Below are positions 1-13,565 of a stretch of 14,011 nucleotides of DNA, in pieces (position 1 is the first letter of the stretch; every line of letters starts with the position of its first letter). The position numbers and the translations under genes were made by a program. Location: UHGV virus genome UHGV-0131161; one strand, written 5' to 3'. This DNA comes from a virus. Under the pieces are notes generated by a model that was not told where the DNA came from, did no database searches, and worked only from the letters and a program-made list of their open reading frames with translations.

Positions 1-934
1 GGTCACGCTCAATATCACGCTGGCATGACTGACATAGCGGAATCGCGTAAATGTCATGCGCGCATAATCGACTATGACGAACGATATAGGGCGTAATGTG
101 AGCACCATCCCCCGCAGCTCCACAAGCACAACATGGACGAGAAGCAACAAAGTCCATGTATTCGGGCAATTTTAGCGATTGCAGTTTTGGTATTTTGAAA
201 TGCGCCATACCTGGATCGGGGTCAACATCCACAGGACATACTTTTGCACGCATCGGCGCGGCGCGTTCTTCCATCATCTGAACATATGCTGTAGCTCGAT
301 CGTCATACGGGCGAATATCCGCCTCTTTCAGAGGTCCGCTATCCTGCGGTGCAGCCTTCATCTTATTTATTGATATGCGGCAGACTTCTTCCGGCATCAG
401 GTGCATCATGTTGCGCATGAAAGCCCACCAGCACAGCTCCTGAATACTTAAATCATGCCCATCTGAAAGGCCCATTTCCTGACGGGCTACATCCAGTATC
501 CAGTTAACGCGATTATTATGCAGCGTTTCTGTCAGCTCATTAAAACCACGCATCCGGTAATGGTTATCGTGATGCCAGCACAACAACACCGCGCTATTGT
601 CTCGTTCAGCGTGGACAATATGGTTGTCACACCAACTACGATCTGCGGCCTGGCATTGCCCCTCTTTCCTACGCAACCACGCCACCAGCGCGTCAATTCC
701 ACCAAGACGACGAAACAGTTCATCGCTGTTAAAAAACGGCTGCAATGCTTCGTTTGTTGCCATGGATTGCTCGGTAACAACGAGGCCATCTTCCATGTGC
801 TCGATTAACTCGCGCGGCACCGGCTCCATAATAAATTTACGGCCAGCCTCCACCAGCTTTCTGACCTCCTGATCCACTTTGAACGTGGCGAGGCCAAGCT
901 CTTTCTGAACAAAGGGAGTAATTACGGCTTTCAC
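1..934 (-). CDS. Hypothetical protein, partial (3' end beyond window start); Cys/His-rich segment near the window edge
   Basis: Open minus-strand frame with no stop from 934 to position 1 (about 311 codons); absent from the ORF track because no stop lies in the window. First in-frame candidate start is GTG at 934-932, preceded by AAGGTG; the upstream in-frame stop is TAA at 962-964. Translation begins [24 protein letters not shown] and ends ...[47 protein letters not shown]. Confidence 0.5.
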
Positions 935-961
935 ATCACACCTTTCATCACTGATTGGGCT

Positions 962-1141
962 TTATCTGCTGCCCGGCATTCTCTGTTTAAGCACAACCAT
1001 TTCCTGACGGCATAACACAGCAATAGCAGTCCTGGCTCCAATTTGCTTACCAACCAGGTATTGCTTTACCTTGCGGCGACTCACGCCATCAAGAAGCATC
1101 TTTAACGCTTTACGGGACAATTTGTTGTATTTGCGTGCCAT
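962..1141 (-). CDS. Small basic hypothetical protein (59 aa), downstream of doc
   Basis: Track ORF 962..1162 trimmed to the ATG at 1141, which has GGAG about 9 nt upstream and sits 2 nt after the stop of the preceding gene. Lys/Arg-rich (MARKYNKLSRKALKMLLDGVSRRKVKQYLVGKQ...). Confidence 0.5.
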   Translation of the reverse strand: MARKYNKLSRKALKMLLDGVSRRKVKQYLVGKQIGARTAIAVLCRQEMVVLKQRMPGSR

Positions 1142-1145
1142 TAAT

Positions 1146-1421
1146 CTACTCCGCAGAACCATACAATCTACGTAACGTCATAGCAGTAGATGCAGATATC
1201 GCCCTTATAACTTCCTCCTTACTTACATCACTGCGGGAGAGGATTTCAGAAGGCGATATTTCCTTTAATGACTTCTGCTTCTCTTTGCAGCTCTCGACCA
1301 GTTCCGCAGGAATAACAAACCTGCTATCAATCGGCACAAGTTCATCAAGCGTTTGTTTGGGTACGTTAAACGTAGGAACCTTAAACGCCGCAGATTCAGT
1401 TCTTAAGTTAATTCTCGTCAT
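1146..1421 (-). CDS. Hypothetical protein (91 aa), immediately downstream of doc
   Basis: ATG at 1421 with GGAG about 10 nt upstream. C-terminus TLRRLYGSAE resembles the Doc C-terminus in this window ([10 protein letters not shown]). Confidence 0.55.
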   Translation of the reverse strand: MTRINLRTESAAFKVPTFNVPKQTLDELVPIDSRFVIPAELVESCKEKQKSLKEISPSEILSRSDVSKEEVIRAISASTAMTLRRLYGSAE

Positions 1422-1440
1422 AGTTTCGTTACTCCACTAC

Positions 1441-1821
1441 TCAAGTATTGGAACCATATAGTTCACGTAGCTTTTCTGCGACGGAAGATACGGCGATTTC
1501 ACCAGTCGCAGCCCCTACAGTAAGGTCTGCCAGTTCAGGTGAATCAAATACCTGCACCCCGTTACGGCGTAGAAATAGCAGCGCACTGTTTAGCGCGGTA
1601 CGCTTATTGGCATCATTGAATATATGCCCTCTCGCAGTAGCCACCAGGTAGGTGGCGGAGACTTCGAAAAGGTCGGTGATCTCTTCGTAGGCAACTCTGG
1701 CCTGAACTCTCCCGATAATGGCCTCTGCCCTACCCGGATCTGACATTCCCGGCAGGCCGCCGTAGCGGTTTATATTCGCATCATGAAGCGCAATAAGTTC
1801 TTCCGGTGATATATGCCTCAT
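1441..1821 (-). CDS. doc: Doc toxin (Fic-fold, death-on-curing) of the phd-doc toxin-antitoxin pair
   Basis: 126-aa product [95 protein letters not shown]... matches my recollection of P1 Doc nearly residue for residue. Start ATG shares one nucleotide with the phd stop (TAATG). Confidence 0.93.
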
Positions 1822-2042
1822 TATCGGTTAACCAGTTCCTTGTTGGTGGAGTCCAGGGTGTCAAACAGGGATGCAAATTCAGCATCCAGCGCCGCTTTTT
1901 TGTAGGCTTCGAAAGTAGCCTTGCTGACAATTACTGCTGGCTCACGGCCTCTGCGGGTGATTTCAACCTCTTCCCCGGCTTCAACATTGTTGAGCACTTC
2001 AGAAAGGTTGCCGCGCGCGGTACGGAAGTTAATGGATTGCAT
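1821..2042 (-). CDS. phd: Phd antitoxin (Phd/YefM family)
   Basis: 73-aa product [73 protein letters not shown] from the ATG at 2042 (GAGGTG 5 nt upstream). The track start at 2048 is an upstream GTG; the shorter form matches P1 Phd as I recall it. Confidence 0.93.
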
Positions 2043-2048
2043 AAACAC

Positions 2049-2080
2049 CTCGTGTACTCGTTATGTGTACACAATTATAA
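2049..2080 (-). promoter_or_regulatory. phd-doc promoter/operator region: -10 TATAAT plus two GTGTAC core motifs
   Basis: On the minus strand, TATAAT (complement of 2074-2079) is followed by the perfect 10-bp palindrome TGTGTACACA (2064-2073) and a second GTGTAC core (2052-2057), all just upstream of the phd RBS. Layout fits autoregulation by Phd/Doc binding palindromic operators. Confidence 0.55.
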
Positions 2081-2114
2081 ACCTCACAGGCATAAAGCAC
2101 CAGCCCTTTGCAGC

Positions 2115-2504
2115 TTAAATAACCGGACAATCATCAAACTCCCCACTTCGGGCATCATTGATGACATGAGTGATCACACCAAAAACAGCATTACTGCCCG
2201 TGCATCCATCGTCATCTACTGGTAACGCCTCTTTCTTCCCGGTGCTTAAATCCTCCAGGTGCTGGCGCGGATACTTCCTGTATCTCTTTATGCGATATTC
2301 ACCCTCCATAGCGCATATAAGCAGTGAACCATCAACCGGAGTAAGTGAGGAATCAACCACCAGCAAAGCACCTTGCAATATTCCCTCACGGTGATGGCTG
2401 TCTGCCGCCCGCATGAAGTAGGTCGCGGAAGGATGTCTGATTAGTTGCTGATCAAGAGAAATGCGGCTCTCTGCATAATCCGCCGCAGGAGAAGGGAAGC
2501 CCAT
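2115..2504 (-). CDS. humD: UmuD'-like protein (S24 LexA/UmuD family), naturally lacking the N-terminal arm upstream of the UmuD cleavage site
   Basis: Product begins [30 protein letters not shown], aligning with E. coli UmuD from Gly25 ([29 protein letters not shown]). The catalytic Ser (DSH for GDSM) and Lys (EYRIKRY for EFTVKKL) are retained. RBS AAGGT upstream of the ATG at 2504. The arrangement LexA box, humD, phd, doc matches P1. Confidence 0.9.
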   Translation of the reverse strand: [129 protein letters not shown]

Positions 2505-2522
2505 AGCGTTTTACCTTAATGA

Positions 2523-2542
2523 TACTGTTTATTCATACAGTA
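2523..2542 (-). promoter_or_regulatory. LexA box (SOS operator) in the humD promoter
   Basis: TACTGTTTATTCATACAGTA is a perfect CTGT-N8-ACAG match, 19 nt upstream of the humD start. On the minus strand it is immediately preceded by TATACT (-10-like), with TTCACA about 18 nt further upstream (-35-like). Confidence 0.85.
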
Positions 2543-2627
2543 TACATTGAAAAGGCATAGTTTGTGAAAGCGGGGTTTGTAGGCGCGCCACGCTGGGGGC
2601 TAATCACATTTCTCCCCCATCTTGCCG

Positions 2628-2879
2628 TTATTTTTTTGGTGCATCCTCGTTCTGATACACCGGATCGCTCCCTTTTGGCAACTGGAGGCTTAACTGCCGG
2701 TAGTGCCGTAGCCGTTCCATGAAATAGGCGCGCAGGTTTTCCGGTTGCTCACGGGCCACCTGCTCTGCAATCACAGGTATATTCAGCCGTTCTTTGTAAG
2801 CAACGCCGCTGGCGGCAAGGTCTACGTTCACCTTGTCTCGCTCTTCCTGGCTTTTAGCTGCTATATTTCGATCTGACAT
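2628..2879 (-). CDS. hot: Homolog of DNA polymerase III theta subunit (HolE-like)
   Basis: Core [43 protein letters not shown] aligns with E. coli HolE ([43 protein letters not shown]). GGGAGG sits 6 nt upstream of the ATG at 2879. Position just upstream of humD fits P1 hot. Confidence 0.8.
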
Positions 2880-2910
2880 AAGAACCTCCCGGAGTTAGTG
2901 GATCAGGCAC

Positions 2911-3267
2911 ATGCACAATAACGTTCTCAATGTTAGCCGTTCAATTCAGACAATCAGAGACTGCACCAGTGTGGTGGCATCAATCCCATTGCGAAATAGC
3001 ATAGACGAACTGCAAATTCGTGTATTGAACCTGAATCATGCCAATGCAATTAAGCAATTGCGCTTTATTTTGACGCTTAAAAGTGAAGCAGAGGGGGTAA
3101 AGCACAGCGTAAAAGTGTTTTCTGAGGCCATTCTGCTTAATGGGAAGCTCCGGCATCTGGTAAGGCCAGAACGTCAATATCCTGACGTCCTGGCTCGTGA
3201 AAAATACCTTCTTTCCGAAGTTCAAGATAAGGTGATCGATTTCGTTAAATCTCATCCCCTGCATTGA
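2911..3267 (+). CDS. Hypothetical protein (118 aa); the only plausible plus-strand gene, strand assignment uncertain
   Basis: AT-rich segment; the plus-frame product has ordinary composition with several rare codons (AGA, ATA, CGA, AGG, CGG). A competing antisense ORF (2980..3264, minus) cannot be excluded. Only 31 bp separate its ATG from the hot start and there is no clear RBS. Confidence 0.3.
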   Translation: MHNNVLNVSRSIQTIRDCTSVVASIPLRNSIDELQIRVLNLNHANAIKQLRFILTLKSEAEGVKHSVKVFSEAILLNGKLRHLVRPERQYPDVLAREKYLLSEVQDKVIDFVKSHPLH

Positions 3268-3306
3268 GAGCAGGTGTTCCTCTTTGTAACAAAGATGCCA
3301 CCAGCA

Positions 3307-3573
3307 TTATGGTTCGCATTTCCAAATGGTGTTCTGAACGCCCGTGCCGGGCGCGAGATGTGGATTAGCGTTCGCGCTATGCTGATATACGGCTTTAGAC
3401 TTTCCATATTGCTGACAGGCTTTATCTGCGGTTTTTTGCAGACTATCCAGCCCATACCAGCCATCTGACTGGATGCTTACCTTTTCACCGTCGTTGTATT
3501 GCACCATTGCACACCCAGACATAGCCAAGATCGCGCCGACAATAACGCTTTTCCATAAAACTCTATGCAACAT
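3307..3573 (-). CDS. Small secreted protein or lipoprotein candidate (88 aa)
   Basis: From the ATG at 3573 (GAGGGG upstream): MLHRVLWKSVIVGAILAMSGC..., a basic N-region, hydrophobic core and a Cys in lipobox-like context (AMSGC; Met at -3 is atypical). The track start at 3579 is an upstream TTG. Confidence 0.5.
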   Translation of the reverse strand: MLHRVLWKSVIVGAILAMSGCAMVQYNDGEKVSIQSDGWYGLDSLQKTADKACQQYGKSKAVYQHSANANPHLAPGTGVQNTIWKCEP

Positions 3574-3578
3574 ATACA

Positions 3579-3608
3579 AAAATCCCCTCTGTGAATTGAG
3601 GGGATTTT
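3579..3608 (-). terminator. Perfect 11-bp-stem hairpin ending the long minus-strand operon, overlapping the RBS of the following gene
   Basis: AAAATCCCCTC (3579-3589), 8-nt loop, GAGGGGATTTT (3598-3608). On the minus strand the stem is followed by a T-run (ATTTTTGTAT). The GAGGGG arm doubles as the RBS of the 3307..3573 gene. Confidence 0.5.
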
Positions 3609-3682
3609 AGCATGGTGATCAGATATCAGCTTTATTCAGAATTTTACCCACCAGCTATGTGATTTTTTCTGACAGGTCATCT

Positions 3683-4489
3683 TTAATACTTGCACTTATG
3701 ACATGCGAATCTCCACTGTTCATGGTCAAAGCACCAGAATACTTCCCTGGGCAGATTGTGTTTTTTCATTTGCGCCAGCACGTGCGTTGGCGTATTTGCG
3801 GGGATTTCTGGTAGCAAAGCCTTAGCCATTTCATGAATTAACATAGCATCTATTACCCCAAGCGTATGCCCAGCCTTAATCTTTAATGCGGTTTCAAGAT
3901 GGCCCCTTTCCAGAGTTGTACTCACTCTTGGCTTCGGCGCTTGTGGATGGGTATCCAGACGGTTGCCAGATTCATAGGCTACCCGCAGCCAGTGCATGAA
4001 TGTTTCCGTAGACACACAACCGCAGTCCTGGTCGATTTTTTCGTGTTGCTGCCCCAGCCACTGCTCAAAATTTAACTTGTTGGATGCTTCTAGAGCCTCT
4101 TCGTATTGTTTGCGCGAAATTATTTCCGTGTATTCCTCACGATCAAGGTTACTTATCGGGAGTCTGACCTCAAGGCAAAAATGGCGTCCTCGCAGGCTTT
4201 TTGCCGGGTCAGAGCCAAAAGCAAAGAGGCCATATGATGGTTCATACTCGTCCTCTCTAACCATGCGACAATCGAGCACATCATCAGGCCACCCTCCACG
4301 CTTTGGCAGCTCCTGCACCAATAAGTCAATCAGCTTTATTGTTTCACCATCCTTGCAGGTTGCTAACGCTATTTTGGCAAGCTCCAACACCTCATCTGCC
4401 GTATATCCAGCACCGTGACCATACATTTCTATTCGTGCGATAATGTCCAATAAACGAGTTTTAGTTATCCTCATATCGCTCACCATCAT
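3683..4489 (-). CDS. Hypothetical protein (268 aa), last gene of the five-gene coupled block
   Basis: Start reassigned to the ATG at 4489, which overlaps the stop of the upstream membrane-protein gene (ATGA); the track's 4588 start would overlap that gene by about 100 nt. No motif recognised. Confidence 0.6.
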   Translation of the reverse strand: MMVSDMRITKTRLLDIIARIEMYGHGAGYTADEVLELAKIALATCKDGETIKLIDLLVQELPKRGGWPDDVLDCRMVREDEYEPSYGLFAFGSDPAKSLRGRHFCLEVRLPISNLDREEYTEIISRKQYEEALEASNKLNFEQWLGQQHEKIDQDCGCVSTETFMHWLRVAYESGNRLDTHPQAPKPRVSTTLERGHLETALKIKAGHTLGVIDAMLIHEMAKALLPEIPANTPTHVLAQMKKHNLPREVFWCFDHEQWRFACHKCKY

Positions 4490-4794
4490 AGATACACAAA
4501 AACCAAAACCCAAAGGCAGGCGACAGTAGGGACGGTAAAATCCTGCAAGCTCGCCATATCCCATACGCGTGGATCGAAACCGCCCCACCAGGGCATATTG
4601 CTGCGCTTACCGTTCCCGAACTTGTTTATCCATCGGTATTCAGCCTGGGTGTGTTCACGCGCAATAAAGAACGTGATCCCTGCTATCGCTCCATAAATCC
4701 AGTTGCCAGTTAATGTGCCCATAAGCACCTGAGCTAAAACGGCACAAGCCGCATGTAATAATGGGGTAATATCAAAGGACTTATTATTTTTCAT
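4486..4794 (-). CDS. Small membrane protein (102 aa), predicted transmembrane segments
   Basis: Hydrophobic stretches LLHAACAVLAQVLMGTLTGNWIYGAIAGITFFIA and VPTVACLWVLVFVYL. Stop overlaps the start of the 268-aa gene (ATGA). Confidence 0.6.
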   Translation of the reverse strand: MKNNKSFDITPLLHAACAVLAQVLMGTLTGNWIYGAIAGITFFIAREHTQAEYRWINKFGNGKRSNMPWWGGFDPRVWDMASLQDFTVPTVACLWVLVFVYL

Positions 4795-5170
4795 TGCGTG
4801 ACATCCTCTTCCATTTCTTTTCGCATTCCTTAGTCCAATTTTTAATGTTCATTTTGGCAATGTCAGTCATTCCATCGCCTAAGAAATACTTTTTCCGGTA
4901 TGTCTTACACTTAAACCACACTACAATAGCCACCAACCAGAAAATAAAAGGCCATACAGCAATGCCAACGACAGCCGCGATAAAGCCCAATAGCCATAAA
5001 TGAAGCTCTCCTACTTCTGTTTCAGGCAATATCTTTAAAGAGTTAAACAGCAGACTGAACGAATGGTCGTATGCAGTGGCGGTATAAGACATGCAATCCA
5101 TATAATTAAAATCATAGCCTGCGGCTGCCGCCCATAATGGGCGGTCAAGAAAATGTTTGAATGTCATCAT
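4784..5170 (-). CDS. Membrane protein (128 aa) with a long hydrophobic segment and Lys-rich C-terminus
   Basis: Segment LWLLGFIAAVVGIAVWPFIFWLVAIVVWF followed by a KK-rich tail. Its start is 7 nt after the upstream stop and its 3' end overlaps the next gene by 11 nt. Confidence 0.6.
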   Translation of the reverse strand: MMTFKHFLDRPLWAAAAGYDFNYMDCMSYTATAYDHSFSLLFNSLKILPETEVGELHLWLLGFIAAVVGIAVWPFIFWLVAIVVWFKCKTYRKKYFLGDGMTDIAKMNIKNWTKECEKKWKRMSRNEK

Positions 5171-5176
5171 ATGAAT

Positions 5177-5470
5177 TTAAGGTTCAGACCAGTTATCTTC
5201 AATAACAATACTTAATCTCTGTAGCCATTCTGCTAATTTCAGCATTGCTTCTCTTTCGCTTAACCCGCGCGGGAAATCATCAAGCGATATTGTTGGCTTG
5301 AAGTTCCCGAAATTATCCATTTCAACGGTCAGATTTTGCTCCAGCACGGTATTCCTTGCGCGACTATTGTGCCGAAGCAAATATACTGAATGTGATTCAT
5401 TGGTTTTGTGGTCGAACGTATATTCGGTAAGTATCATCTGGCTTTTGCCATGACTATTACCTCTCCACAT
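5177..5470 (-). CDS. Hypothetical soluble protein (97 aa)
   Basis: Start reassigned to the ATG at 5470 (GAGGT 5 nt upstream), immediately after the stop of the 40-aa peptide ORF. The track's longer form from 5566 would overlap that ORF. Confidence 0.55.
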   Translation of the reverse strand: MWRGNSHGKSQMILTEYTFDHKTNESHSVYLLRHNSRARNTVLEQNLTVEMDNFGNFKPTISLDDFPRGLSEREAMLKLAEWLQRLSIVIEDNWSEP

Positions 5471-5477
5471 ACTTACC

Positions 5478-5600
5478 TCACTTAATAAAACAACTCCATG
5501 CGTAGTTGATGATTTTTTCCCACGCAATATAAATCTGCACTCCGGCAGTAAAACCAAAGCCAACAATTGCTGAAAAAATCAAAATATTTACTTTTGACAT
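5478..5600 (-). CDS. Small hydrophobic peptide (40 aa), not in the ORF track
   Basis: ATG at 5600 to TGA at 5478-5480 gives MSKVNILIFSAIVGFGFTAGVQIYIAWEKIINYAWSCFIK, with a single predicted transmembrane helix. Its stop lies 8 nt before the next start. Found by manual translation. Confidence 0.4.
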   Translation of the reverse strand: MSKVNILIFSAIVGFGFTAGVQIYIAWEKIINYAWSCFIK

Positions 5601-5648
5601 TATAAAATTTCTCTCGGTGCAGTAGGTGATAGCACCATAATTGATAAT

Positions 5649-5882
5649 TTAGTGAGTTAGCAGTTCCATTTTTTTGATGATTTCCGCATGAGCATCATCG
5701 TTATCAACACTTAGCTCGTTTAATGCTTCTCGCACTACATCAACCTCTTCAGGCTGAAGGAAGTCGTCGCGGTAATCACCAAATAGAACCGAAACCAGCC
5801 TGCCACCAGCAACATCAAGATTGGCGCTAACAGGTGGCTCTTTGCCATCCTCAAATTCGACTACAAAAGTTAATTTTCCCAT
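5649..5882 (-). CDS. Hypothetical acidic protein (77 aa)
   Basis: ATG at 5882 with a strong RBS (AGGGGG) that overlaps the stop of the 27-aa peptide ORF. The track start at 5900 is a TTG. Product MGKLTFVVEFEDGKEPPV.... Confidence 0.6.
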   Translation of the reverse strand: MGKLTFVVEFEDGKEPPVSANLDVAGGRLVSVLFGDYRDDFLQPEEVDVVREALNELSVDNDDAHAEIIKKMELLTH

Positions 5883-5884
5883 CG

Positions 5885-5968
5885 TTACCCCCTGCGACAA
5901 ATTGAATACACAACCAGTGCTACCGCCATTGCAATTCCGACCGTGGTGAATGCCTCAGGCCAGCTCAT
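5885..5968 (-). CDS. Small hydrophobic peptide (27 aa), not in the ORF track
   Basis: ATG at 5968 overlaps the DUF551 gene stop (ATGA), with GGAGG 6 nt upstream. Product MSWPEAFTTVGIAMAVALVVYSICRRG. Its TAA lies inside the RBS of the next gene. Confidence 0.4.
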   Translation of the reverse strand: MSWPEAFTTVGIAMAVALVVYSICRRG

Positions 5969-6669
5969 TGATCGACCTCCTGCGGCGGTTCTGGTAGCGA
6001 CATCCAGTCGGTTACATTGCGACTCTGTGTTTCGAAAAATTCATCACCATTGCGGACAATATCGAAAAACTCTCCGTCTCGATATTGCGCATAAAGAACG
6101 AATGCGCCATCACATAAAATAATTACGTGCTGACCATCCTCTGGCATTCGCTCACTACAGCTTATCCAACCATCCGGAGTTACCGGATAGTTGCCATTCA
6201 CAAGGTCAGCTCGAACATATAGCGTGTCATCATGGTGCTGATTGTGGCTGCACCACGTTAATTCGCTTAACTCGCCATCTTCTGGCCATACTCCAGCTGT
6301 TTGCAGCCAGATATGGGCTGGCGCATCTTGGCAAGGTGTATTAACTGGCAACTTGTAAGTTTGGCTTACAGGTTGGCTACCCTGAAGCATGGCAGCGTGG
6401 CAGGCATCCTCTACGCCCTTTACTGCATCTGCGCAGTAGTTATAGCGATTGCATTCCACTAATTTCCGTTTGAGTTTTTCAATTGCTTGCGCGACATCAG
6501 CCTGTATTTCCGGAACTGGCGGTTCTGCCCGGCCTTTCCAGCCTTCCCACATGGCAGCCATCATCACGAACCAAGCGTTTCCACAGCCATCTTTTTTGTT
6601 ATCAAAGAACCAGTCAGCGAACTCTAGGCTCATGCCATTTTGTTCTGCTATTTCATATCGATTATCCAT
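5965..6669 (-). CDS. DUF551-domain phage protein (234 aa)
   Basis: C-terminal GWISCSERMPEDGQHVIIL...DGEFFDI...VTDWMSLPEPPQ matches the DUF551 signature as I recall it (W-I-S-x-E-R-L-P-E ... T-H-W-M-P-L-P-E-P-P). Confidence 0.7.
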   Translation of the reverse strand: MDNRYEIAEQNGMSLEFADWFFDNKKDGCGNAWFVMMAAMWEGWKGRAEPPVPEIQADVAQAIEKLKRKLVECNRYNYCADAVKGVEDACHAAMLQGSQPVSQTYKLPVNTPCQDAPAHIWLQTAGVWPEDGELSELTWCSHNQHHDDTLYVRADLVNGNYPVTPDGWISCSERMPEDGQHVIILCDGAFVLYAQYRDGEFFDIVRNGDEFFETQSRNVTDWMSLPEPPQEVDQ

Positions 6670-7033
6670 TGTTCTTCTCCTTGTTTAGCATGGCAGCACG
6701 GCAGGCATTCCAGCCTCTCACCTCTGCAATAGCGGCAACAGCATCGACCGCGTACATTTTAAGAGGGTTGGGCATTGGTTTTTCTTCAGGTACTACTGGC
6801 ACTGGAGTGGCGGCATAAACAGGAATAACGTCCGCTTGCTCTTTATTGCTTTCATCCGTTAAAGCCCAGAATAATTTCCCGGCAGGATGTTTGAAAATAT
6901 AAGCAACTGGATCTGCTTCCAGCGATGCCAGTGCAATTTCATAAGCACGGCGCTCAATATTGTCTCGAACGTCCAAGCTGCCTATGCGCTCTTTGATTTC
7001 TTTAATCAGTTCTTTGTCGGTAAAAGTGGTCAT
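6662..7033 (-). CDS. Hypothetical phage protein (123 aa) sharing a short motif with the adjacent DUF551 gene
   Basis: C-terminal GWNACRAAML parallels ACHAAML in the DUF551 protein, with a 20-nt DNA match. ATG at 7033 lies 1 nt after the Ea22-like gene stop. Confidence 0.6.
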   Translation of the reverse strand: MTTFTDKELIKEIKERIGSLDVRDNIERRAYEIALASLEADPVAYIFKHPAGKLFWALTDESNKEQADVIPVYAATPVPVVPEEKPMPNPLKMYAVDAVAAIAEVRGWNACRAAMLNKEKNNG

Positions 7034-7034
7034 G

Positions 7035-7787
7035 TCACTCTCCTTTGATGCGAATGCCAGCGTCAGACATCATATGCAGATACTCAACTGCATCCTGAAC
7101 CCATTGACCGCCAATCCCGTAATAGCGATGCGTAATGATGTCGATAGTTACTAACGGGTCTTGTTCGATTAACTTCCGCAGAAACTCTTCCAGGTCACCA
7201 GTGCAGTGCTTGATGACAGGAGTTTTCCCAGGATGGCGAACAACAAGAAACTGATTTCCGACTTCACGGACTTCGTTGCTTTCCAGTTCTGCAATGCGCT
7301 TCTCTGAGGCTTCCAGCTTCTCGCGCATATCGTCAACGTACTCGACCAGAGAACCGCCAGCAGGAATTTCGCACTCCTCGACCAGTTGGAAGTAGATATC
7401 AGCTGCGGCCCGTGTGTTGCTATGCCTAGCGTCGCCCATCTCACCTTCACGAAGAGCATCGCGTTCGGCGGTAAGATTGGCTATTTTGCTGTCTTTGCCT
7501 TCCAGCTCAACGCGCAGCCTCCCAACCGTAAGCGCAATATCCTCGTTCTCCTGGTCGCGTGATTTGATGTATTGCTGGTTTCTTTCCCGTTCATCCAGTA
7601 GTGCCAGCACGGTTTCTGGTCCGGCCAGAAATTTGAAGGCGTTGAGCGCATCAATATCCACACCGTAATCTTTAAGTTCCTGTTCACTTAACAAATCATC
7701 ATCAACTGGCAACATTAACAGGCGTTCCATTGCCGGAATTGCACGTTCTGCCGCCTCACGCAGTGCCTGATAGTCAATCTTGCTCAT
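7035..7787 (-). CDS. Ead/Ea22-like family protein (250 aa), paralog 2
   Basis: N-terminus MSKIDYQALREAAERA..., which I associate with lambdoid Ea22-like early accessory proteins; central coiled-coil-like region. Family assignment from memory. Confidence 0.6.
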   Translation of the reverse strand: MSKIDYQALREAAERAIPAMERLLMLPVDDDLLSEQELKDYGVDIDALNAFKFLAGPETVLALLDERERNQQYIKSRDQENEDIALTVGRLRVELEGKDSKIANLTAERDALREGEMGDARHSNTRAAADIYFQLVEECEIPAGGSLVEYVDDMREKLEASEKRIAELESNEVREVGNQFLVVRHPGKTPVIKHCTGDLEEFLRKLIEQDPLVTIDIITHRYYGIGGQWVQDAVEYLHMMSDAGIRIKGE

Positions 7788-7788
7788 G

Positions 7789-8088
7789 TCACATCACCCT
7801 GAATCCGTTGCATTTACGTAAGAAATCGCAGATATAGCCCTTCATTTTTTCATGCCAATCTCGATCATTCCCATTGCACCAACCATCAGGTGGAGTCCAG
7901 TTTTCTATCAGAGCAGCCATTTTCTTTGCTTTCGCCGGAGTAGCTGTTGCGGTATCGCAGTAATGACGAGTGTCAACCAACGCATCCATACCATCGATAT
8001 CAAGTACGCAAAACCATGTGTGATTCGGCATTTCAACAGATGGTATTTGTTGCCCACGTCGACGTTTATCAATAAGACATACAGTCAC
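7789..8088 (-). CDS. Hypothetical protein (99 aa) between the two Ea22-like genes
   Basis: GTG start at 8088 with a strong RBS (AAGGAGG 7 nt upstream), overlapping the upstream stop (GTGA). Its stop lies 1 nt before the next ATG. Confidence 0.55.
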   Translation of the reverse strand: MTVCLIDKRRRGQQIPSVEMPNHTWFCVLDIDGMDALVDTRHYCDTATATPAKAKKMAALIENWTPPDGWCNGNDRDWHEKMKGYICDFLRKCNGFRVM

Positions 8089-8723
8089 TGGTTGCCTCCT
8101 TTGCGAAGCTGTTCAGCAATACTTACGCATATCTCTGCGCCTCTAATCAGCCCCGGAACGTTCTTGTTTGGCCCAACTTCACCATCAACAAAATCAATCA
8201 TCGCGTTACGAGCCATATCCACGCCCTGCGCCCGTACTTCAGCCAGGAAAGCATCGGTGGCTGGAATGGGCTTTTGTGGTGATATAGCAATGCGAATTGT
8301 CTCAAGGTCTGGATCTGTTTCCGCTGCTGGCACCTTGATATAACCCATCTGCACCCCATTCATGATGAACCTGCGACGGTCATCACATATCGCCTTTAGC
8401 CCCGCATTCTCGGCCACCAGCGCCGCGAGATTAGTCTCAAGCTCTGCAATTCGACACATAGCATCAATATTTGTGTCCTCCAGGCACTTAATTTCACCAA
8501 GCAGCTCCAGTGCAACCTTTGGGTTGAACGCGGCAACATGACGAGCGTTGTTCTCTGCATTTTTCTGTCCATCAAAGCCGGTCCATTTGATAACGTCTTC
8601 ACATCGTTCATCACCGGGCGTGTGCACCGCATAAGTACCAGTATCCGTCGAAATAAATGCGACCCATTCGTCTGGTGTTGCCTTTTCTGCCGCCTCACGC
8701 AGTACCTGATAGTCAATTGTCAT
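8085..8723 (-). CDS. Ead/Ea22-like family protein (212 aa), paralog 1
   Basis: Start reassigned to the ATG at 8723 (MTIDYQVLREAAEKATPDEW...), which overlaps the upstream stop (ATGA) and has GAAGGA upstream. Shares a 33-nt near-identical 5' segment with paralog 2. Confidence 0.6.
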   Translation of the reverse strand: MTIDYQVLREAAEKATPDEWVAFISTDTGTYAVHTPGDERCEDVIKWTGFDGQKNAENNARHVAAFNPKVALELLGEIKCLEDTNIDAMCRIAELETNLAALVAENAGLKAICDDRRRFIMNGVQMGYIKVPAAETDPDLETIRIAISPQKPIPATDAFLAEVRAQGVDMARNAMIDFVDGEVGPNKNVPGLIRGAEICVSIAEQLRKGGNQ

Positions 8724-9364
8724 TCTCGCCATCCTTCACAGTTGTAATCACTACAGCCTTCAAAATCATATGGGCTGTACTGCCAGGTTATTTTTCCGCA
8801 ATGCGGACAATTCCAACGCACCTTCCCGCTTCGCGACTTCTTTCTTCTGTTCTGCTCTTTCAACCAGTCAGGCATGACCAAACCTGCGCCCTGAACCATT
8901 GTTCTGCGGTTAAAGTTATTGATATTGAACGTCCGACGCTTTGCTGAATCAGCAATGGAAAATGGCAACCAAACTATTCCTGGTTCGTTTTTGTTGGCGA
9001 CGCTAAAGATGGTCGCTTTACTGAAGTCATCTGTTGGCAATCCACCGTGTTGAAGCCAGTAAACATCGTTGCCGTTCCAGCTACCTTTTTTGTAGGCCAC
9101 ATACGCAGTGCAATCTGACTCAATCAGGCTTTCTGTAGGGATGTACTGGCAATCAACGTGCCACACAGCCATTGCATCCACACTATCGGCACAAACAGGC
9201 TGATCGATATCTCGCCCACAATTCCAGGCTTTTTGGGCTTCTTCCAGCGTGTAAACATGAGCGCGATCGATATCAGAACTGTAACCATTGCCGTTATGGC
9301 AATGGAATGAAGCGTTATTACCCACAGTTTCACGCAAGCACATCATGTAAAAGCGGTTATTCAC
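8720..9364 (-). CDS. Hypothetical protein (214 aa) with a C-terminal Cys cluster
   Basis: C-terminal NCPHCGK...CSDYNC (CxxC-N15-CxxxxC), a possible zinc ribbon. Coupled to flanking genes by overlaps. Confidence 0.55.
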   Translation of the reverse strand: MNNRFYMMCLRETVGNNASFHCHNGNGYSSDIDRAHVYTLEEAQKAWNCGRDIDQPVCADSVDAMAVWHVDCQYIPTESLIESDCTAYVAYKKGSWNGNDVYWLQHGGLPTDDFSKATIFSVANKNEPGIVWLPFSIADSAKRRTFNINNFNRRTMVQGAGLVMPDWLKEQNRRKKSRSGKVRWNCPHCGKITWQYSPYDFEGCSDYNCEGWRE

Positions 9365-9572
9365 TGGTCGCCTCCCAGCAAATTTGTCTTATATAAGAAC
9401 TGTTAACGCGCTTTACTTTCCCGTCGAACTCCAGTTTCTTTAGACGACGCAAAACGTATGCCGTTTTGAGTGTGCGATATTTATCCCTAAGCCAGTTGGT
9501 CACGACGTAAGTCATACAGCGCCCGTGTTCTTCCAACACCCGAACTATTTCTTCGTCGGTTGGCTTGCTCAT
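9357..9572 (-). CDS. Small basic hypothetical protein (71 aa), possible DNA-binding fold
   Basis: Basic product (…LRRLKKLEFDGKVKRV…); ATGA overlap with the upstream gene. Fold assignment is speculative. Confidence 0.5.
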   Translation of the reverse strand: MSKPTDEEIVRVLEEHGRCMTYVVTNWLRDKYRTLKTAYVLRRLKKLEFDGKVKRVNSSYIRQICWEATSE

Positions 9573-9790
9573 TTTGTCGCTCCTTCAGCTTTCTCTACTT
9601 TCGCTGCCATGATTTCCAGCTTTTGTGCTGCCGATACCGCTAACCTGTGAAATTCTTCATCTGTTTCAACTGGAATTGGTACAAACCTGACACCAATTTG
9701 AGCAAGGCTATGCGCCATTTCGAGACTTGCTCTTAACTCTGCTGGGGATGCTTTATTCAGGCCGACTTCCTCACAAATAACTGATTGCAT
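9569..9790 (-). CDS. Small hypothetical phage protein (73 aa)
   Basis: ORF in the coupled gene train; no motif recognised. Confidence 0.5.
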   Translation of the reverse strand: MQSVICEEVGLNKASPAELRASLEMAHSLAQIGVRFVPIPVETDEEFHRLAVSAAQKLEIMAAKVEKAEGATK

Positions 9791-9799
9791 ACGCTCGCC

Positions 9800-10525
9800 C
9801 TACTGAATACGCTCAAACTCGATTACCCAAACCCAGGGATTAGCACTCCAGCTTTCTTCGCCGTAGATGGACTCCCACAGACGCTGGAACGCAACCTTTG
9901 CCATTGCGAAGTCCCCATTGGGAGTAAGGAATGTTCCCGGGTAATCAGGAAGCAAACTTCCAGCAGGCGGAACGCCCTCAGCCCCTGCATCGCATTCGCT
10001 GATATCGTTCAACCGCTCAACGCGCACGTTGGTAATTTCCAACAGAATGCGTGATGCCCATCGCGGCATGTGAATTGATGGACGCCACCCACCATCAAAC
10101 TTTTCATTCACAGTGTGAGGTTTCCAGTCGGCATCATCGGGTATCGACCATAAGCCGTAATCACCAGGCTTTTGCTCACAACTGGCCCGATAAATCCTTG
10201 CTGCGCTCTTCTCATCGCCACGACAAAGGTTGTCGTTCCAGTCCACACTGCAACCATCCTCATTGCCTAATATCGCCCATGTTTCACGAACCCAAATTCG
10301 ATCGCCGACGATACCAAAGGGGCAATTGAAAACACTGCTTACACCATCAGCCCCGTACCACTGAAAACCTGCACCAATTTTTCTAACCATCACTGGTGCT
10401 TCTGGACCAACTTCCGCAGGCTGATTTTTCATTATCCGCCGCGTCTGCGTTTTCCTTCCTTCGAGGATGGCCCGGACCATCTCATCGTTGAAAATCATGC
10501 CGCGCTCTTTCACTTCGCCTTTCAT
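9800..10525 (-). CDS. Putative ASCH/PUA-like domain phage protein (241 aa)
   Basis: N-terminal MIFNDEMVRAILEGRKTQTRR resembles the conserved start of phage ASCH-domain proteins as I recall it. ATG at 10525 lies 7 nt after the stop of the 28-aa peptide ORF. Confidence 0.55.
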   Translation of the reverse strand: MKGEVKERGMIFNDEMVRAILEGRKTQTRRIMKNQPAEVGPEAPVMVRKIGAGFQWYGADGVSSVFNCPFGIVGDRIWVRETWAILGNEDGCSVDWNDNLCRGDEKSAARIYRASCEQKPGDYGLWSIPDDADWKPHTVNEKFDGGWRPSIHMPRWASRILLEITNVRVERLNDISECDAGAEGVPPAGSLLPDYPGTFLTPNGDFAMAKVAFQRLWESIYGEESWSANPWVWVIEFERIQ

Positions 10526-10534
10526 GCATCCCCC

Positions 10535-10621
10535 TTACCCATGCGCGACGATGCCGCCAAAAGTGATAGAGAACAGCCAGAAATAGATCGCGGCCATAAT
10601 GATTTTGAATGCCGTGTTCAT
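10535..10621 (-). CDS. Small hydrophobic peptide (28 aa), first ORF of the long operon; not in the ORF track
   Basis: ATG at 10621 with AGGAG 8 nt upstream; product MNTAFKIIMAAIYFWLFSITFGGIVAHG; TAA at 10535-10537. Confidence 0.4.
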   Translation of the reverse strand: MNTAFKIIMAAIYFWLFSITFGGIVAHG

Positions 10622-10648
10622 ATTTTCAGCTCCTGTGATTGATTAGAT

Positions 10649-10680
10649 ACATGCCGCGCCTTGCGGCATGTTTTTATTTT
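10649..10680 (+). terminator. Rho-independent terminator-like hairpin, U-tract on the plus strand
   Basis: ACATGCCGC (10649-10657), loop GCCTT, GCGGCATGT (10663-10671), then TTTTATTTT (10672-10680). The U-tract is on the plus side even though the flanking genes are on the minus strand. Confidence 0.5.
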
Positions 10681-10703
10681 CACTTTCCCTGCTTTAAAAA
10701 TCA

Positions 10704-10720
10704 AGATTTATTAGAGCAAT
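10704..10720 (-). promoter_or_regulatory. P1 C1-repressor operator-like site (16/17 to consensus)
   Basis: Minus-strand ATTGCTCTAATAAATCT against the recalled consensus ATTGCTCTAATAAATTT. Overlaps the stop of the HAD phosphatase gene and lies about 85 nt upstream of the first ORF of the long operon. Confidence 0.5.
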
Positions 10721-11299: not shown

Positions 11300-12562
11300 T
11301 CAGCGAACGTAAATAGTGCCGCCGTTCTCTTTTTCCCATGCGTCGCTACGTGCATAGCAAACATCGAGAAGTCTTCTTGCCGCTGTTTCCTCTAAACCCA
11401 ATTCGACAACCAACTGTTCATGACGGCGGGTAACCACATCAAACAACGTATGCAGCCCTTTAGTTGCCAGTTCATCAATGAATTCCGGTTCGAACGGTAG
11501 CTCTGCATCTGCCAACATAACCTCTTGCGCCCACTCGACACGGCGGACCAGTTCCGGGCGGCGGCTTTCCATCTCTTTACAGATCAATTCATGGAAGAAC
11601 TCTACCCAACCTTCCGGCTGGAACTCGCGGAAAATGGCCAGCGGCTGGAAGTTTGGCATCAACCATTCGTTGATTCGGATATCAATGGCATAGCCCATGT
11701 CACAGCAGAACTGATAAGCAAAGTCCAGCTTAGAAACGATATAAGGGCGCTCGTTATTGAACTCTTTAGGCGATGAGATCCCATAAGCCAGGAGGCGCGG
11801 GAAGAAGGATATTTGCCCTAACGTCGGATGGAGTTTACTTGCAGGGAAACGGCGCTCAGTAATGCCATACATTTCCTTCTTGAGTGTCGCAAATTTGGCA
11901 TTTTCATTAACCAGCTCGGTAACCTCTGCTTTTTTATTAGCAAATGCCACGCGCGCCTCACTTGCATCTTTAATGGCCTTTTTGAGCTGTTGGTTAAGGT
12001 CGGCGACCTGCTTACGCAGTTCCTGGCGCTCGCTTTTGGCTTTGTTATAGCGTTTCTCAAGGTTAAAAGGATCAAGTTTCATGATCTCTTTATATTGAGA
12101 TTTTAGCGTTGAAATCTGTGAGTTCCGCAGCTCAACCATCGCAGTCATTTCATTGAGTTTTGTTTCCAACTCAATGCTTATACGTTCGGCATTATCAGCA
12201 CGCTGGTTGGCGTCATGCGTCGCATCGTCGATGGCGTCCTGTTGCTGGCGTTTCAAATGCTCAATTTGCAGCTGAAGCTCTTCAATTTCTTTCCCCTTCA
12301 GACCGAGATCCAGCTGCATATTTTCAGCTGCATCTACCAGGTCGTTATGGCTATCAGCTTCTGCGTTATAAACATCAATAAGCTGTGCGTGAAGCATCTC
12401 AGCTGACTGAACCGCATTATCAAAAAAACGTGCTGTGAGGTCATCACAACTAACGCGGCGTTGCGCGGCTCGGATGTTCTGAATAATGGCCGGGATACCG
12501 GCATTCAGGACGTCAGGGATAGATACATTTTCGATTGATTGGTTTTGTGCTGAAGTGCTCAT
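11300..12562 (-). CDS. Coiled-coil protein (420 aa) with a C-terminal globular region (P1 pmgS-position gene)
   Basis: Residues about 70-230 are heptad-like and rich in E/K/Q/L (…EIEELQLQIEHLKRQQQDAIDDATHDANQRADNAERISIELETKLNEM…). Its start is 1 nt after the stop of the upstream small gene. Confidence 0.65.
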   Translation of the reverse strand: MSTSAQNQSIENVSIPDVLNAGIPAIIQNIRAAQRRVSCDDLTARFFDNAVQSAEMLHAQLIDVYNAEADSHNDLVDAAENMQLDLGLKGKEIEELQLQIEHLKRQQQDAIDDATHDANQRADNAERISIELETKLNEMTAMVELRNSQISTLKSQYKEIMKLDPFNLEKRYNKAKSERQELRKQVADLNQQLKKAIKDASEARVAFANKKAEVTELVNENAKFATLKKEMYGITERRFPASKLHPTLGQISFFPRLLAYGISSPKEFNNERPYIVSKLDFAYQFCCDMGYAIDIRINEWLMPNFQPLAIFREFQPEGWVEFFHELICKEMESRRPELVRRVEWAQEVMLADAELPFEPEFIDELATKGLHTLFDVVTRRHEQLVVELGLEETAARRLLDVCYARSDAWEKENGGTIYVR

Positions 12563-12563
12563 T

Positions 12564-12782
12564 TCAAAGTTCCGTATTAGCTTGTGCTTCGGTCATTTTT
12601 CCTAAGTATGAAGGTGGAAGGACTACGCAATTTGTATCCAGTCCCTCACCAATGGCAGCCTGTAAAATTCTGGCTAAGGTGAGTCTCTTGTTGCGATACC
12701 GGGTGATGACATGCCTGATATCGCCGGACGGTGTAACAAAGGCGATCAGCCAGTAGTGATATTTCCGTCGGAATGGCCACAT
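12564..12782 (-). CDS. Small hypothetical protein (72 aa)
   Basis: ATG at 12782 with AAGGTG 6 nt upstream, directly downstream of the operator/terminator complex. Confidence 0.5.
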   Translation of the reverse strand: MWPFRRKYHYWLIAFVTPSGDIRHVITRYRNKRLTLARILQAAIGEGLDTNCVVLPPSYLGKMTEAQANTEL

Positions 12783-12796
12783 AGTGCACCTTATGG

Positions 12797-12862
12797 ATTG
12801 CTCTAATAAAAAACGTGATGAGTGTACATCACGTTTTAAAAATATGGAATTATTAGAGCAAT
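12797..12862 (-). promoter_or_regulatory. Pair of inverted P1 C1 operator-like sites flanking a 10-bp-stem terminator hairpin
   Basis: Plus-strand ATTGCTCTAATAAAAAA (12797-12813; 14/17) and minus-strand ATTGCTCTAATAATTCC (complement of 12846-12862; 14/17) flank the hairpin AAACGTGATG (12811-12820) / CATCACGTTT (12827-12836). A T-run follows the hairpin on the minus strand. Confidence 0.5.
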
Positions 12863-12863
12863 A

Positions 12864-13565
12864 TTATTCTGATTCTTGCTCAAAAAACGCGCTAATGAGG
12901 GGAAGCCAATCCTCTGACACTTCGCGAGGTCGCGGTTTGCCGTGGAAAAAGATTATTCGGCAGTCCTTTGGTAATGCCCCATTCCCCCTGGAGTAACGCG
13001 CGCTTGCATATTTAGAACCAGGTTCCACAACATCGGCCTTGTAACTTACAAACCATCCCGGATACAGATCCTGAAATGCTGGTGTGTCATCGCCCATAAC
13101 CTTCCGCAAGAACCCCTGATCACCCCAGCACTCAGTAGTAACACAACGAGCAATCCAACCTTCCGGATCTTGCCAGAATGCACTCCAGATGTGCGCTTTT
13201 ACACTATTTGGTATCCACAGAGCACCGCTGCCACGATATTGTGGATGGTAAAAATCCCTAAGCATGGTGAAGCTGGTTGGTGGATTCTCAAGAATTGGGC
13301 GTATATCACCGGCAATAACCGTGTCCAAATCCAGGTAGAAGAGATCATCGGTTATATCCGGTCGAAACAACTCGATTTTCGCCCACCAGCCACGGCACTT
13401 TTGCCACTGGTTGATTAATGGGACAACCTTAACGCCTGGCACATGTAAACTCTTCAGGTCTGTCAGGCAAATAATTTCATAGCCTTTTGGCAGCTGATTA
13501 ACCAGCCACTGCACATCGGAAGCGTTATAGTCGCCACCAGAGCGAAGAACTAAAGCAATCTTCAT
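12864..13565 (-). CDS. Putative DxD-motif nucleotide-sugar transferase-like protein (233 aa; P1 pmgQ-position gene)
   Basis: N-terminal strand MKIALVL and an acidic DLD triad in YLDLDTV near residue 80, reminiscent of GT-A glycosyltransferases; low-confidence fold guess. ATGA overlap with the phosphatase gene stop. Confidence 0.55.

Follow-up and report, generated by a model that had tools for sequence, protein, structure and literature searches.

The window analyzed here is a 14,011-nucleotide stretch of the virus genome UHGV-0131161, and all large open reading frames near the module described below (positions 12797 to 12862) lie on its minus strand. Upstream is pmgQ (12864 to 13565, minus strand; 233 amino acids, named "glycosyltransferase" in RefSeq), which closes the pmgN-ppp-pmgQ operon; the phosphatase gene ppp lies upstream of it. 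Downstream, the controlled operon opens with pmgR (12564 to 12782, minus strand; 72 amino acids), followed by pmgS (11300 to 12562, minus strand; 420 amino acids) as its second gene and then by pap. The sequence-only reading had placed the module between a phosphatase/transferase pair and the next operon, which is where it lies: the pmgQ stop codon occupies 12864 to 12866 and the pmgR ATG is at 12782, both on the minus strand, and the module stands at the head of the pmgR-pmgS-pap operon. According to the P1 annotation, the upstream genes pmgN-pmgO-pmgP-ppp-pmgQ have a C1 operator of their own, Oppp (Op83).

A 1-kb query around the module is 95.6 to 97% identical to P1, P7, SJ46, RCS47, and other P1-type phages, and it also matched 687 plasmid records, mostly from Escherichia. 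These matches to both P1-type phages and plasmids indicate that the window is part of a P1-like phage-plasmid. The window as a whole is 95 to 97% identical to P1-type phages and phage-plasmids over 55 to 75% of its length, and it is a mosaic, of which any one phage or plasmid record covers at most 75% (at about 96% identity). Records that match positions 1 to 10700 annotate ead/Ea22-like, DUF968, and S24 peptidase genes there. A consensus search of the window found no match to the P1 operators Olpa (Op94) and Op99, indicating that beyond pmgT the content of the window is not that of reference P1.

Two inverted C1 operators and a hairpin

The 13-mer ATTGCTCTAATAA lies at 12797 to 12809 on the plus strand, and again, in exact inverted form, at 12850 to 12862 on the minus strand, as confirmed both by reading the sequence and with a repeat finder. 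The two arms are 40 nt apart. The window has three exact copies of ATTGCTCTAATAA, including one at 10708 to 10720 on the minus strand, against an expectation of 0.00 from 200 dinucleotide-preserving shuffles of the window. A search with the 17-mer consensus ATTGCTCTAATAAATTT, allowing up to three mismatches, returned the same three sites, with 0.09 expected. The P1 annotation identifies the two copies that flank the hairpin as Op86a and Op86b and the third as Op88 (OpmgT).

Op86a (OpmgRa; ATTGCTCTAATAATTCC) occupies 12846 to 12862 on the minus strand and begins 1 nt past the pmgQ stop codon. It is identical to the P1 protein_bind feature at 82152 to 82168 and to P7 Op(sht[a]). Op86b (OpmgRb; ATTGCTCTAATAAAAAA) occupies 12797 to 12813 on the plus strand and is identical to the P1 protein_bind feature at 82201 to 82217 and to P7 Op(sht[b]); it is inverted relative to Op86a and reads TTTTTTATTAGAGCAAT on the gene strand. 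The centers of these operators are separated by 49 bp, with 32 bp between the 17-mers. The third operator, Op88 (ATTGCTCTAATAAATCT; 10704 to 10720, minus strand), is a consensus match that is likewise annotated in P1. It heads the operon that follows downstream and adjoins the pap stop codon, and it is thus another operator set right at an operon junction.

Between the two 13-mers lies a hairpin with a perfect stem, as first described, although the stem is 11 bp long (12827 to 12837 pairing with 12810 to 12820) rather than the 10 bp reported for 12811 to 12836, which is nested within it. The hairpin (12810 to 12837, minus strand) has a 6-nt loop at 12821 to 12826 and a predicted folding energy of -13.4 kcal/mol on each strand, with z scores of about -5.3 to -5.4. 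The G+C-containing part of the stem, CGTGATG/CATCACG, is followed by the T-run TTTTTTATT (12805 to 12813, minus strand), a candidate U-tract that lies inside Op86b; the final four T residues of the right arm of the hairpin overlap this operator. Read along the gene strand, the order is the pmgQ stop codon, 1 nt, Op86a, an 8-nt spacer, the hairpin, Op86b, a 14-nt spacer with a Shine-Dalgarno sequence, and the pmgR ATG.

The equivalent site is present in the P1 reference, where, as in P7, the 66-bp module is 100% identical to that of the window; the three sequences agree at every base from upstream of Op86a through the end of Op86b. The motifs had been called C1-operator-like, and their base-for-base identity with the annotated OpmgRa and OpmgRb of P1 and Op(sht[a]) and Op(sht[b]) of P7 bears this out. 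The consensus used for that call is also correct: ATTGCTCTAATAAATTT is quoted in PMC8546580, which gives 22 operators for P1. Op86a and Op86b each agree with 14 of 17 consensus positions and with all 13 core positions, and the other annotated 17-bp P1 operators agree with 12 to 17 of the 17.

The P1 record AF234172 describes OpmgRa as a "monovalent C1-controlled operator," formerly Op86a, that "controls expression of pmgR and pmgS." OpmgRb is given as the former Op86b and is also labeled monovalent, and the record further carries a predicted sigma-70 promoter, PpmgR. The GenBank notes cite an experimental reference for Op88 and none for Op86, and our literature search found no paper that uses "Op86" in the phage sense. 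Judged by sequence identity, the inverted motifs are the C1 operators Op86a and Op86b, a known and ordinary feature that is already annotated in P1 (AF234172) and P7 (AF503408) and is unchanged in hundreds of P1-like phage-plasmids. As an already known operator pair, the Op86 module carries little weight for discovery.

Conservation of the module and pairing of the hairpin

Useful diversity came from contigs encoding PmgS relatives and from Cronobacter phage JK004. Since relatives were collected through the PmgS protein together with this phage, no selection was placed on the operators. A PmgS profile recovered only three loci from a genome-collection scan, and viral and metagenome scans returned almost only relatives at 97 to 99% identity. 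The PmgS relatives that we compared are 27 to 71% identical. Every relative found has the same gene order, with a phosphatase gene and a pmgQ-like gene followed by a gap, a gene of 72 to 75 amino acids, and the PmgS gene. Eight lineages at 51 to 71% PmgS identity (L128, L130, L133, L267, JK004, L124, L126, and L138) all fit a hairpin flanked by two C1-type sites, the second of them inverted, into the same 66 nt. We rejected a mobile element or recombination site as the source of the inverted repeats because the gene neighbors are the same in every relative and the repeats match a dispersed operator family.

Within the P1 clade, we compared 125 PmgS-anchored loci representing 69 unique sequences. 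None of the 17 positions of Op86b and none of the 6 positions of the hairpin loop varies among these 69 sequences, and the core of Op86a is nearly invariant. By comparison, 7 of the 14 positions of the ribosome-binding-site spacer that follows Op86b are variable, with high minor-allele counts. An invariant Op86b next to 14 polymorphic nucleotides indicates that the constraint stops exactly at the operator edge.

Some relatives depart from the usual module. In Salmonella enterica GCA_018041245.1 (L130, 2175 to 2305; 71% PmgS identity), position 5 is changed from C to T in both operator cores, which read TTTGTTCTAATAA and ATTGTTCTAATAA; this concerted change could reflect a slight shift of repressor specificity in that lineage. 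In a contig of Logan ERR12361609 (L132, 2704 to 2750; 27% PmgS identity), a different, perfect 15-bp inverted pair, AAGATACTAATTTAT and ATAAATTAGTATCTT, takes the corresponding position, downstream of the pmgQ-like gene and upstream of the small gene that precedes the PmgS homolog. Its arms are 17 bp apart around a -10-like GATATT, with TTTACA 17 bp upstream. This pair presumably serves a repressor of other specificity, and the layout of inverted sites around a promoter seems to be older than the C1 operator sequence. Two close relatives, the metagenome contigs L256 and L269, carry sequence ahead of pmgR-pmgS that bears no relation to the usual module, pointing to a rearrangement or an insertion at the junction.

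The pairing of the hairpin was counted in 24 distinct variants, with one batch of variant sequences having been selected for intact operator cores. We used gap-free 28-nt segments because a MAFFT alignment of the 66-nt modules had misplaced a gap in the clade at 51 to 54% identity. Across the 24 variants, 95.5% of cells form standard pairs when read on the gene (minus) strand versus 88.3% on the opposite strand, and 12 versus 31 cells are left unpaired. One-sided changes that still pair as G·U account for 24 cells on the gene strand versus 5 on the opposite strand, and the deep lineages each show two or three G·U pairs when read on the gene strand and lack them altogether on the other. In the gene-strand stem, changes on both sides are seen at 5 of the 11 pairs (for example, pair 6 from G-C to A-U and pair 9 from A-U to G-C), and the covariation score was reached by 0 of 500 shuffles. 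By our own tally, about 13 independent changes fit gene-strand pairing versus 4 that fit only the opposite strand, all 4 of them singletons (one-sided binomial, about 0.025).

Predicted folding energies follow the same asymmetry. The gene-strand hairpin has a free energy of -13 to -16.5 kcal/mol in every lineage, compared with -5.8 to -11 kcal/mol on the opposite strand in diverged relatives, where the plus-strand hairpin is decayed and is followed by A-rich tails. The strongest hairpin (-16.5 kcal/mol) is that of L133, whose stem differs in sequence, is displaced in register, and is again followed by TTTTTTATT. With G·U wobbles found almost only on the gene strand, the hairpin would act as RNA in one direction, and the overall pattern fits selection for pairing in RNA but neither a protein site on double-stranded DNA nor a terminator that works both ways.

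This pattern bears directly on two other explanations of the hairpin. The inner repeat might be the palindromic DNA site of a second, dimeric regulator lying over the -10 element, with the arm changes tracking a co-evolving protein specificity. Symmetric double changes in both arms would also be expected of a palindromic protein site, and the repeat is centered exactly on the candidate -10 discussed below. However, the single-arm changes are biased toward gene-strand G·U pairing, which a double-stranded DNA site would not favor, and the L133 stem remains a strong hairpin despite its altered sequence and register. No candidate protein is known, and we consider such a regulator quite improbable.

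The other explanation is that of the sequence-only reading, in which a bidirectional terminator is bracketed by two C1 sites and one repressor complex, possibly looped, would set both termination or read-through and the downstream promoter. In P1 and in the window, the stem is indeed perfectly palindromic, is flanked on each side by A-runs and T-runs, and folds equally well on each strand, and Heinzel et al. reportedly described C1-mediated looping at the c1 region in 1994. Nevertheless, no gene converges on the module, as all its neighbors lie on the minus strand, and the stem on the plus strand is weakened or lost in diverged relatives, with A-rich tails and a wobble asymmetry that favors the gene strand; the terminator thus does not appear to be bidirectional. 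The looped complex fares no better. A protein-mediated loop would have to form over a very short spacing, each site is labeled monovalent in GenBank, and C1 also represses the upstream operon at Oppp, which would leave little transcription to terminate in a lysogen. We found no support for looping or for control of termination by C1, and we regard joint control by looping as highly improbable.

The one-directional RNA element that we favor instead begins 26 nt past the stop codon of pmgQ, the last stop of its operon, and a U-run comes next in most lineages. Its position and pairing make it most likely a one-directional Rho-independent terminator, or a 3'-end stabilizer, of transcripts that read through from ppp-pmgQ. 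The T-run is kept in relatives at 64 to 71% PmgS identity; it is degraded to CTTGATT in the clade at 51 to 54%, where the hairpin is retained, and termination may thus not be its sole role. The stem is A+T-rich, with only four G-C pairs, and a consensus promoter and terminator scan of 12500 to 13100 returned no match. We think that the putative terminator was missed by the scanner because the stem extends through A/T pairs and consumes the T-run. Rfam 15 covariance models likewise gave no match in 12600 to 13000 at E values up to 1. Among the GenBank P1 features that we examined, no terminator of any kind is annotated, so the silence of the record on this hairpin is uninformative. The literature search yielded no P1 start-site or Term-seq data set, and an RNA-seq paper on P1vir maps C1 sites and terminators in a figure.

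The pmgR promoter and its control

The sigma-70 promoter PpmgR predicted in GenBank (P1 82153 to 82181) corresponds to 12833 to 12861 on the minus strand of the window, with the -35 TTGCTC at 12856 to 12861, within Op86a, and the -10 TAAAAC at 12833 to 12838. Taken at face value, this annotation implies that Op86a alone represses pmgR, through occlusion of the -35, that Op86b is an auxiliary roadblock, and that the hairpin either has no role or serves solely as a terminator. Apart from the P1 annotation itself, the same layout, with the -35 in the operator, recurs at P1ban, which is there labeled a sigma-70 promoter and not a predicted one. PpmgR, however, carries the label "predicted" in the record, its -10 hexamer has no T at the key position 6, and that hexamer is TGAAGC or TGCGGC in relatives that otherwise keep everything. 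This arrangement appears rather unlikely to us.

The hairpin loop offers a different -10. The sequence TACACT at 12821 to 12826 (minus strand) is TATCAT or TATTAT elsewhere, and the pattern TAnnnT, which comprises the three positions that are best conserved in sigma-70 -10 elements, is invariant in all 24 hairpin variants from all lineages. In a hexamer search of 10 lineages, the loop -10, joined to a -35 across a 16-bp spacer, was the top sigma-70 candidate each time, and a purine is predicted at +1 in every lineage. Seven distant lineages have TTTACT or TTGATT as the corresponding -35 (promoter score, 9/12), and L128 has TTTAAT (8/12). The Pantoea alvi plasmid L138, in the clade at 51 to 54%, combines a strong candidate promoter (TTGATT-16-TATTAT) with a degraded U-tract. 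In the window and P1 the -35 is TCCATA (12843 to 12848, minus strand), a weak candidate that gives a score of 7/12; it lies just 3' of the Op86a core and overlaps the final 3 bp of this operator. The true -10 of PpmgR is thus probably in the hairpin loop rather than at the TAAAAC predicted in GenBank, and its annotated place in the P1 reference is probably off by 12 bp. With either predicted promoter, both operators fall within the polymerase footprint.

A P1 late (Lpa-dependent) promoter was also considered and rejected. The late layout places the -22 box AAGTGACTT 4 bp upstream of the -10 hexamer, and AAGTKACT is common to the six annotated P1 late promoters; the box is absent from 12783 to 12863, and nothing similar occurs there.

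The gene pmgR is among five newly identified essential P1 genes, and its deletion is lethal, leaving heads and tails unjoined (PMC9024508). CRISPRi knockdown of ppp, pmgO, pmgP, and pmgQ left plating intact (PMC10695390). This result and the essentiality of pmgR are weakly consistent with a separate pmgR promoter; the CRISPRi evidence is weak because the same screen did not score pmgR itself as essential (PMC10695390).

The account that we favor, with a probability of roughly 0.6, is that the Op86a/Op86b pair closes a pmgR promoter whose -10 lies in the hairpin loop and that the hairpin is a one-directional RNA element of read-through transcripts. C1 binds asymmetric 17-mers as a monomer, and in a lysogen, one C1 monomer would sit on each 17-mer. 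The two sites would converge on the pmgR core promoter, with Op86a at about -48 to -32, abutting the -35, and Op86b at about +2 to +18; the predicted start is near 12814 to 12816, inside the right arm of the hairpin. Either bound C1 would exclude RNA polymerase, and two would give tighter repression, which would be relieved and the pmgR promoter fired once C1 is inactivated. Since double occlusion of a single promoter would suffice, the geometry can be explained without looping.

On the RNA side of this account, the stem-loop followed by UUUUUUAUU would terminate or stabilize transcripts arriving from ppp-pmgQ. Transcripts from PpmgR would begin in the right arm, which would give a pmgR mRNA without the hairpin and confine the hairpin to read-through RNA. 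Terminator, promoter, and two operators would accordingly be nested within the 81 bp between pmgQ and pmgR. The anatomy taken alone, that is, a nested terminator, promoter, and operator with the -10 of PpmgR in the terminator loop and a U-tract that is also Op86b, is in our view an even bet.

A further elaboration is that C1 on Op86b, where polymerase would pause to terminate, modulates read-through from ppp-pmgQ into pmgR-pmgS in addition to blocking initiation. If true, C1-modulated termination would be a modest form of the earlier idea that needs no looping, but we hold it to be distinctly unlikely.

Comparison with known systems

The closest counterparts of the module are OpmgRa/OpmgRb of P1 and Op(sht[a])/Op(sht[b]) of P7, which are identical to it in sequence and orientation. 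The flanking genes are also shared, with pmgQ (hdmD in P7) upstream and pmgR-pmgS (shtA-shtB in P7) downstream. The flanks in the window are 96 to 97% identical to those of P1, and the few base differences fall in the 3' end of pmgQ and in the ribosome-binding-site spacer.

Two convergent, inverted C1 17-mers at a single promoter, the upstream one on the -35, are likewise found at P1 Obanab (formerly Op72ab), the operator of the ban promoter. The 17-mers of Obanab, however, overlap by 6 bp as an incomplete palindrome and are labeled "divalent," whereas those of Op86 are 32 bp apart, on either side of the predicted core promoter and the hairpin, and each "monovalent." We thus rejected a divalent operator of the Op72ab type, as the Op86 17-mers at 12797 to 12813 and 12846 to 12862 do not overlap. 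Two strong C1-consensus sites also occur near the c1/coi end of P1 (AF234172, 94641 on the minus strand and 94724 on the plus strand); they are divergent and 83 bp apart, an orientation opposite to that of the convergent Op86 pair.

The gal operators OE and OI, and lac O1 with its auxiliary operators, likewise place two repressor sites around one core promoter. Their repressors are dimers or tetramers that bind symmetric sites, with loops of about 90 to 115 bp or more, unlike the asymmetric 17-mers of Op86 with their 49-bp spacing.

Like the Rho-independent terminators of enterobacteria and their phages, the module has a stem-loop and a candidate U-run shortly past the last stop codon of an operon, and its stem is kept by compensatory changes. 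It differs from them in its A+T-rich stem, in the conserved -10-like hexamer in its loop, and in a U-tract that doubles as a repressor site and is lost in the most distant clade. The comparison yields two testable corrections to the P1 map: the -10 of PpmgR is probably in the hairpin loop, and the hairpin would work as RNA on one strand only, probably as the terminator of ppp-pmgQ, and not in both directions. Because pmgR is among the few essential P1 morphogenesis genes of unknown function, its true promoter and its shut-off by C1 would be useful to P1 engineering. Set beside these known systems, the comparison gives small corrections to a well-mapped phage and not a new kind of element.
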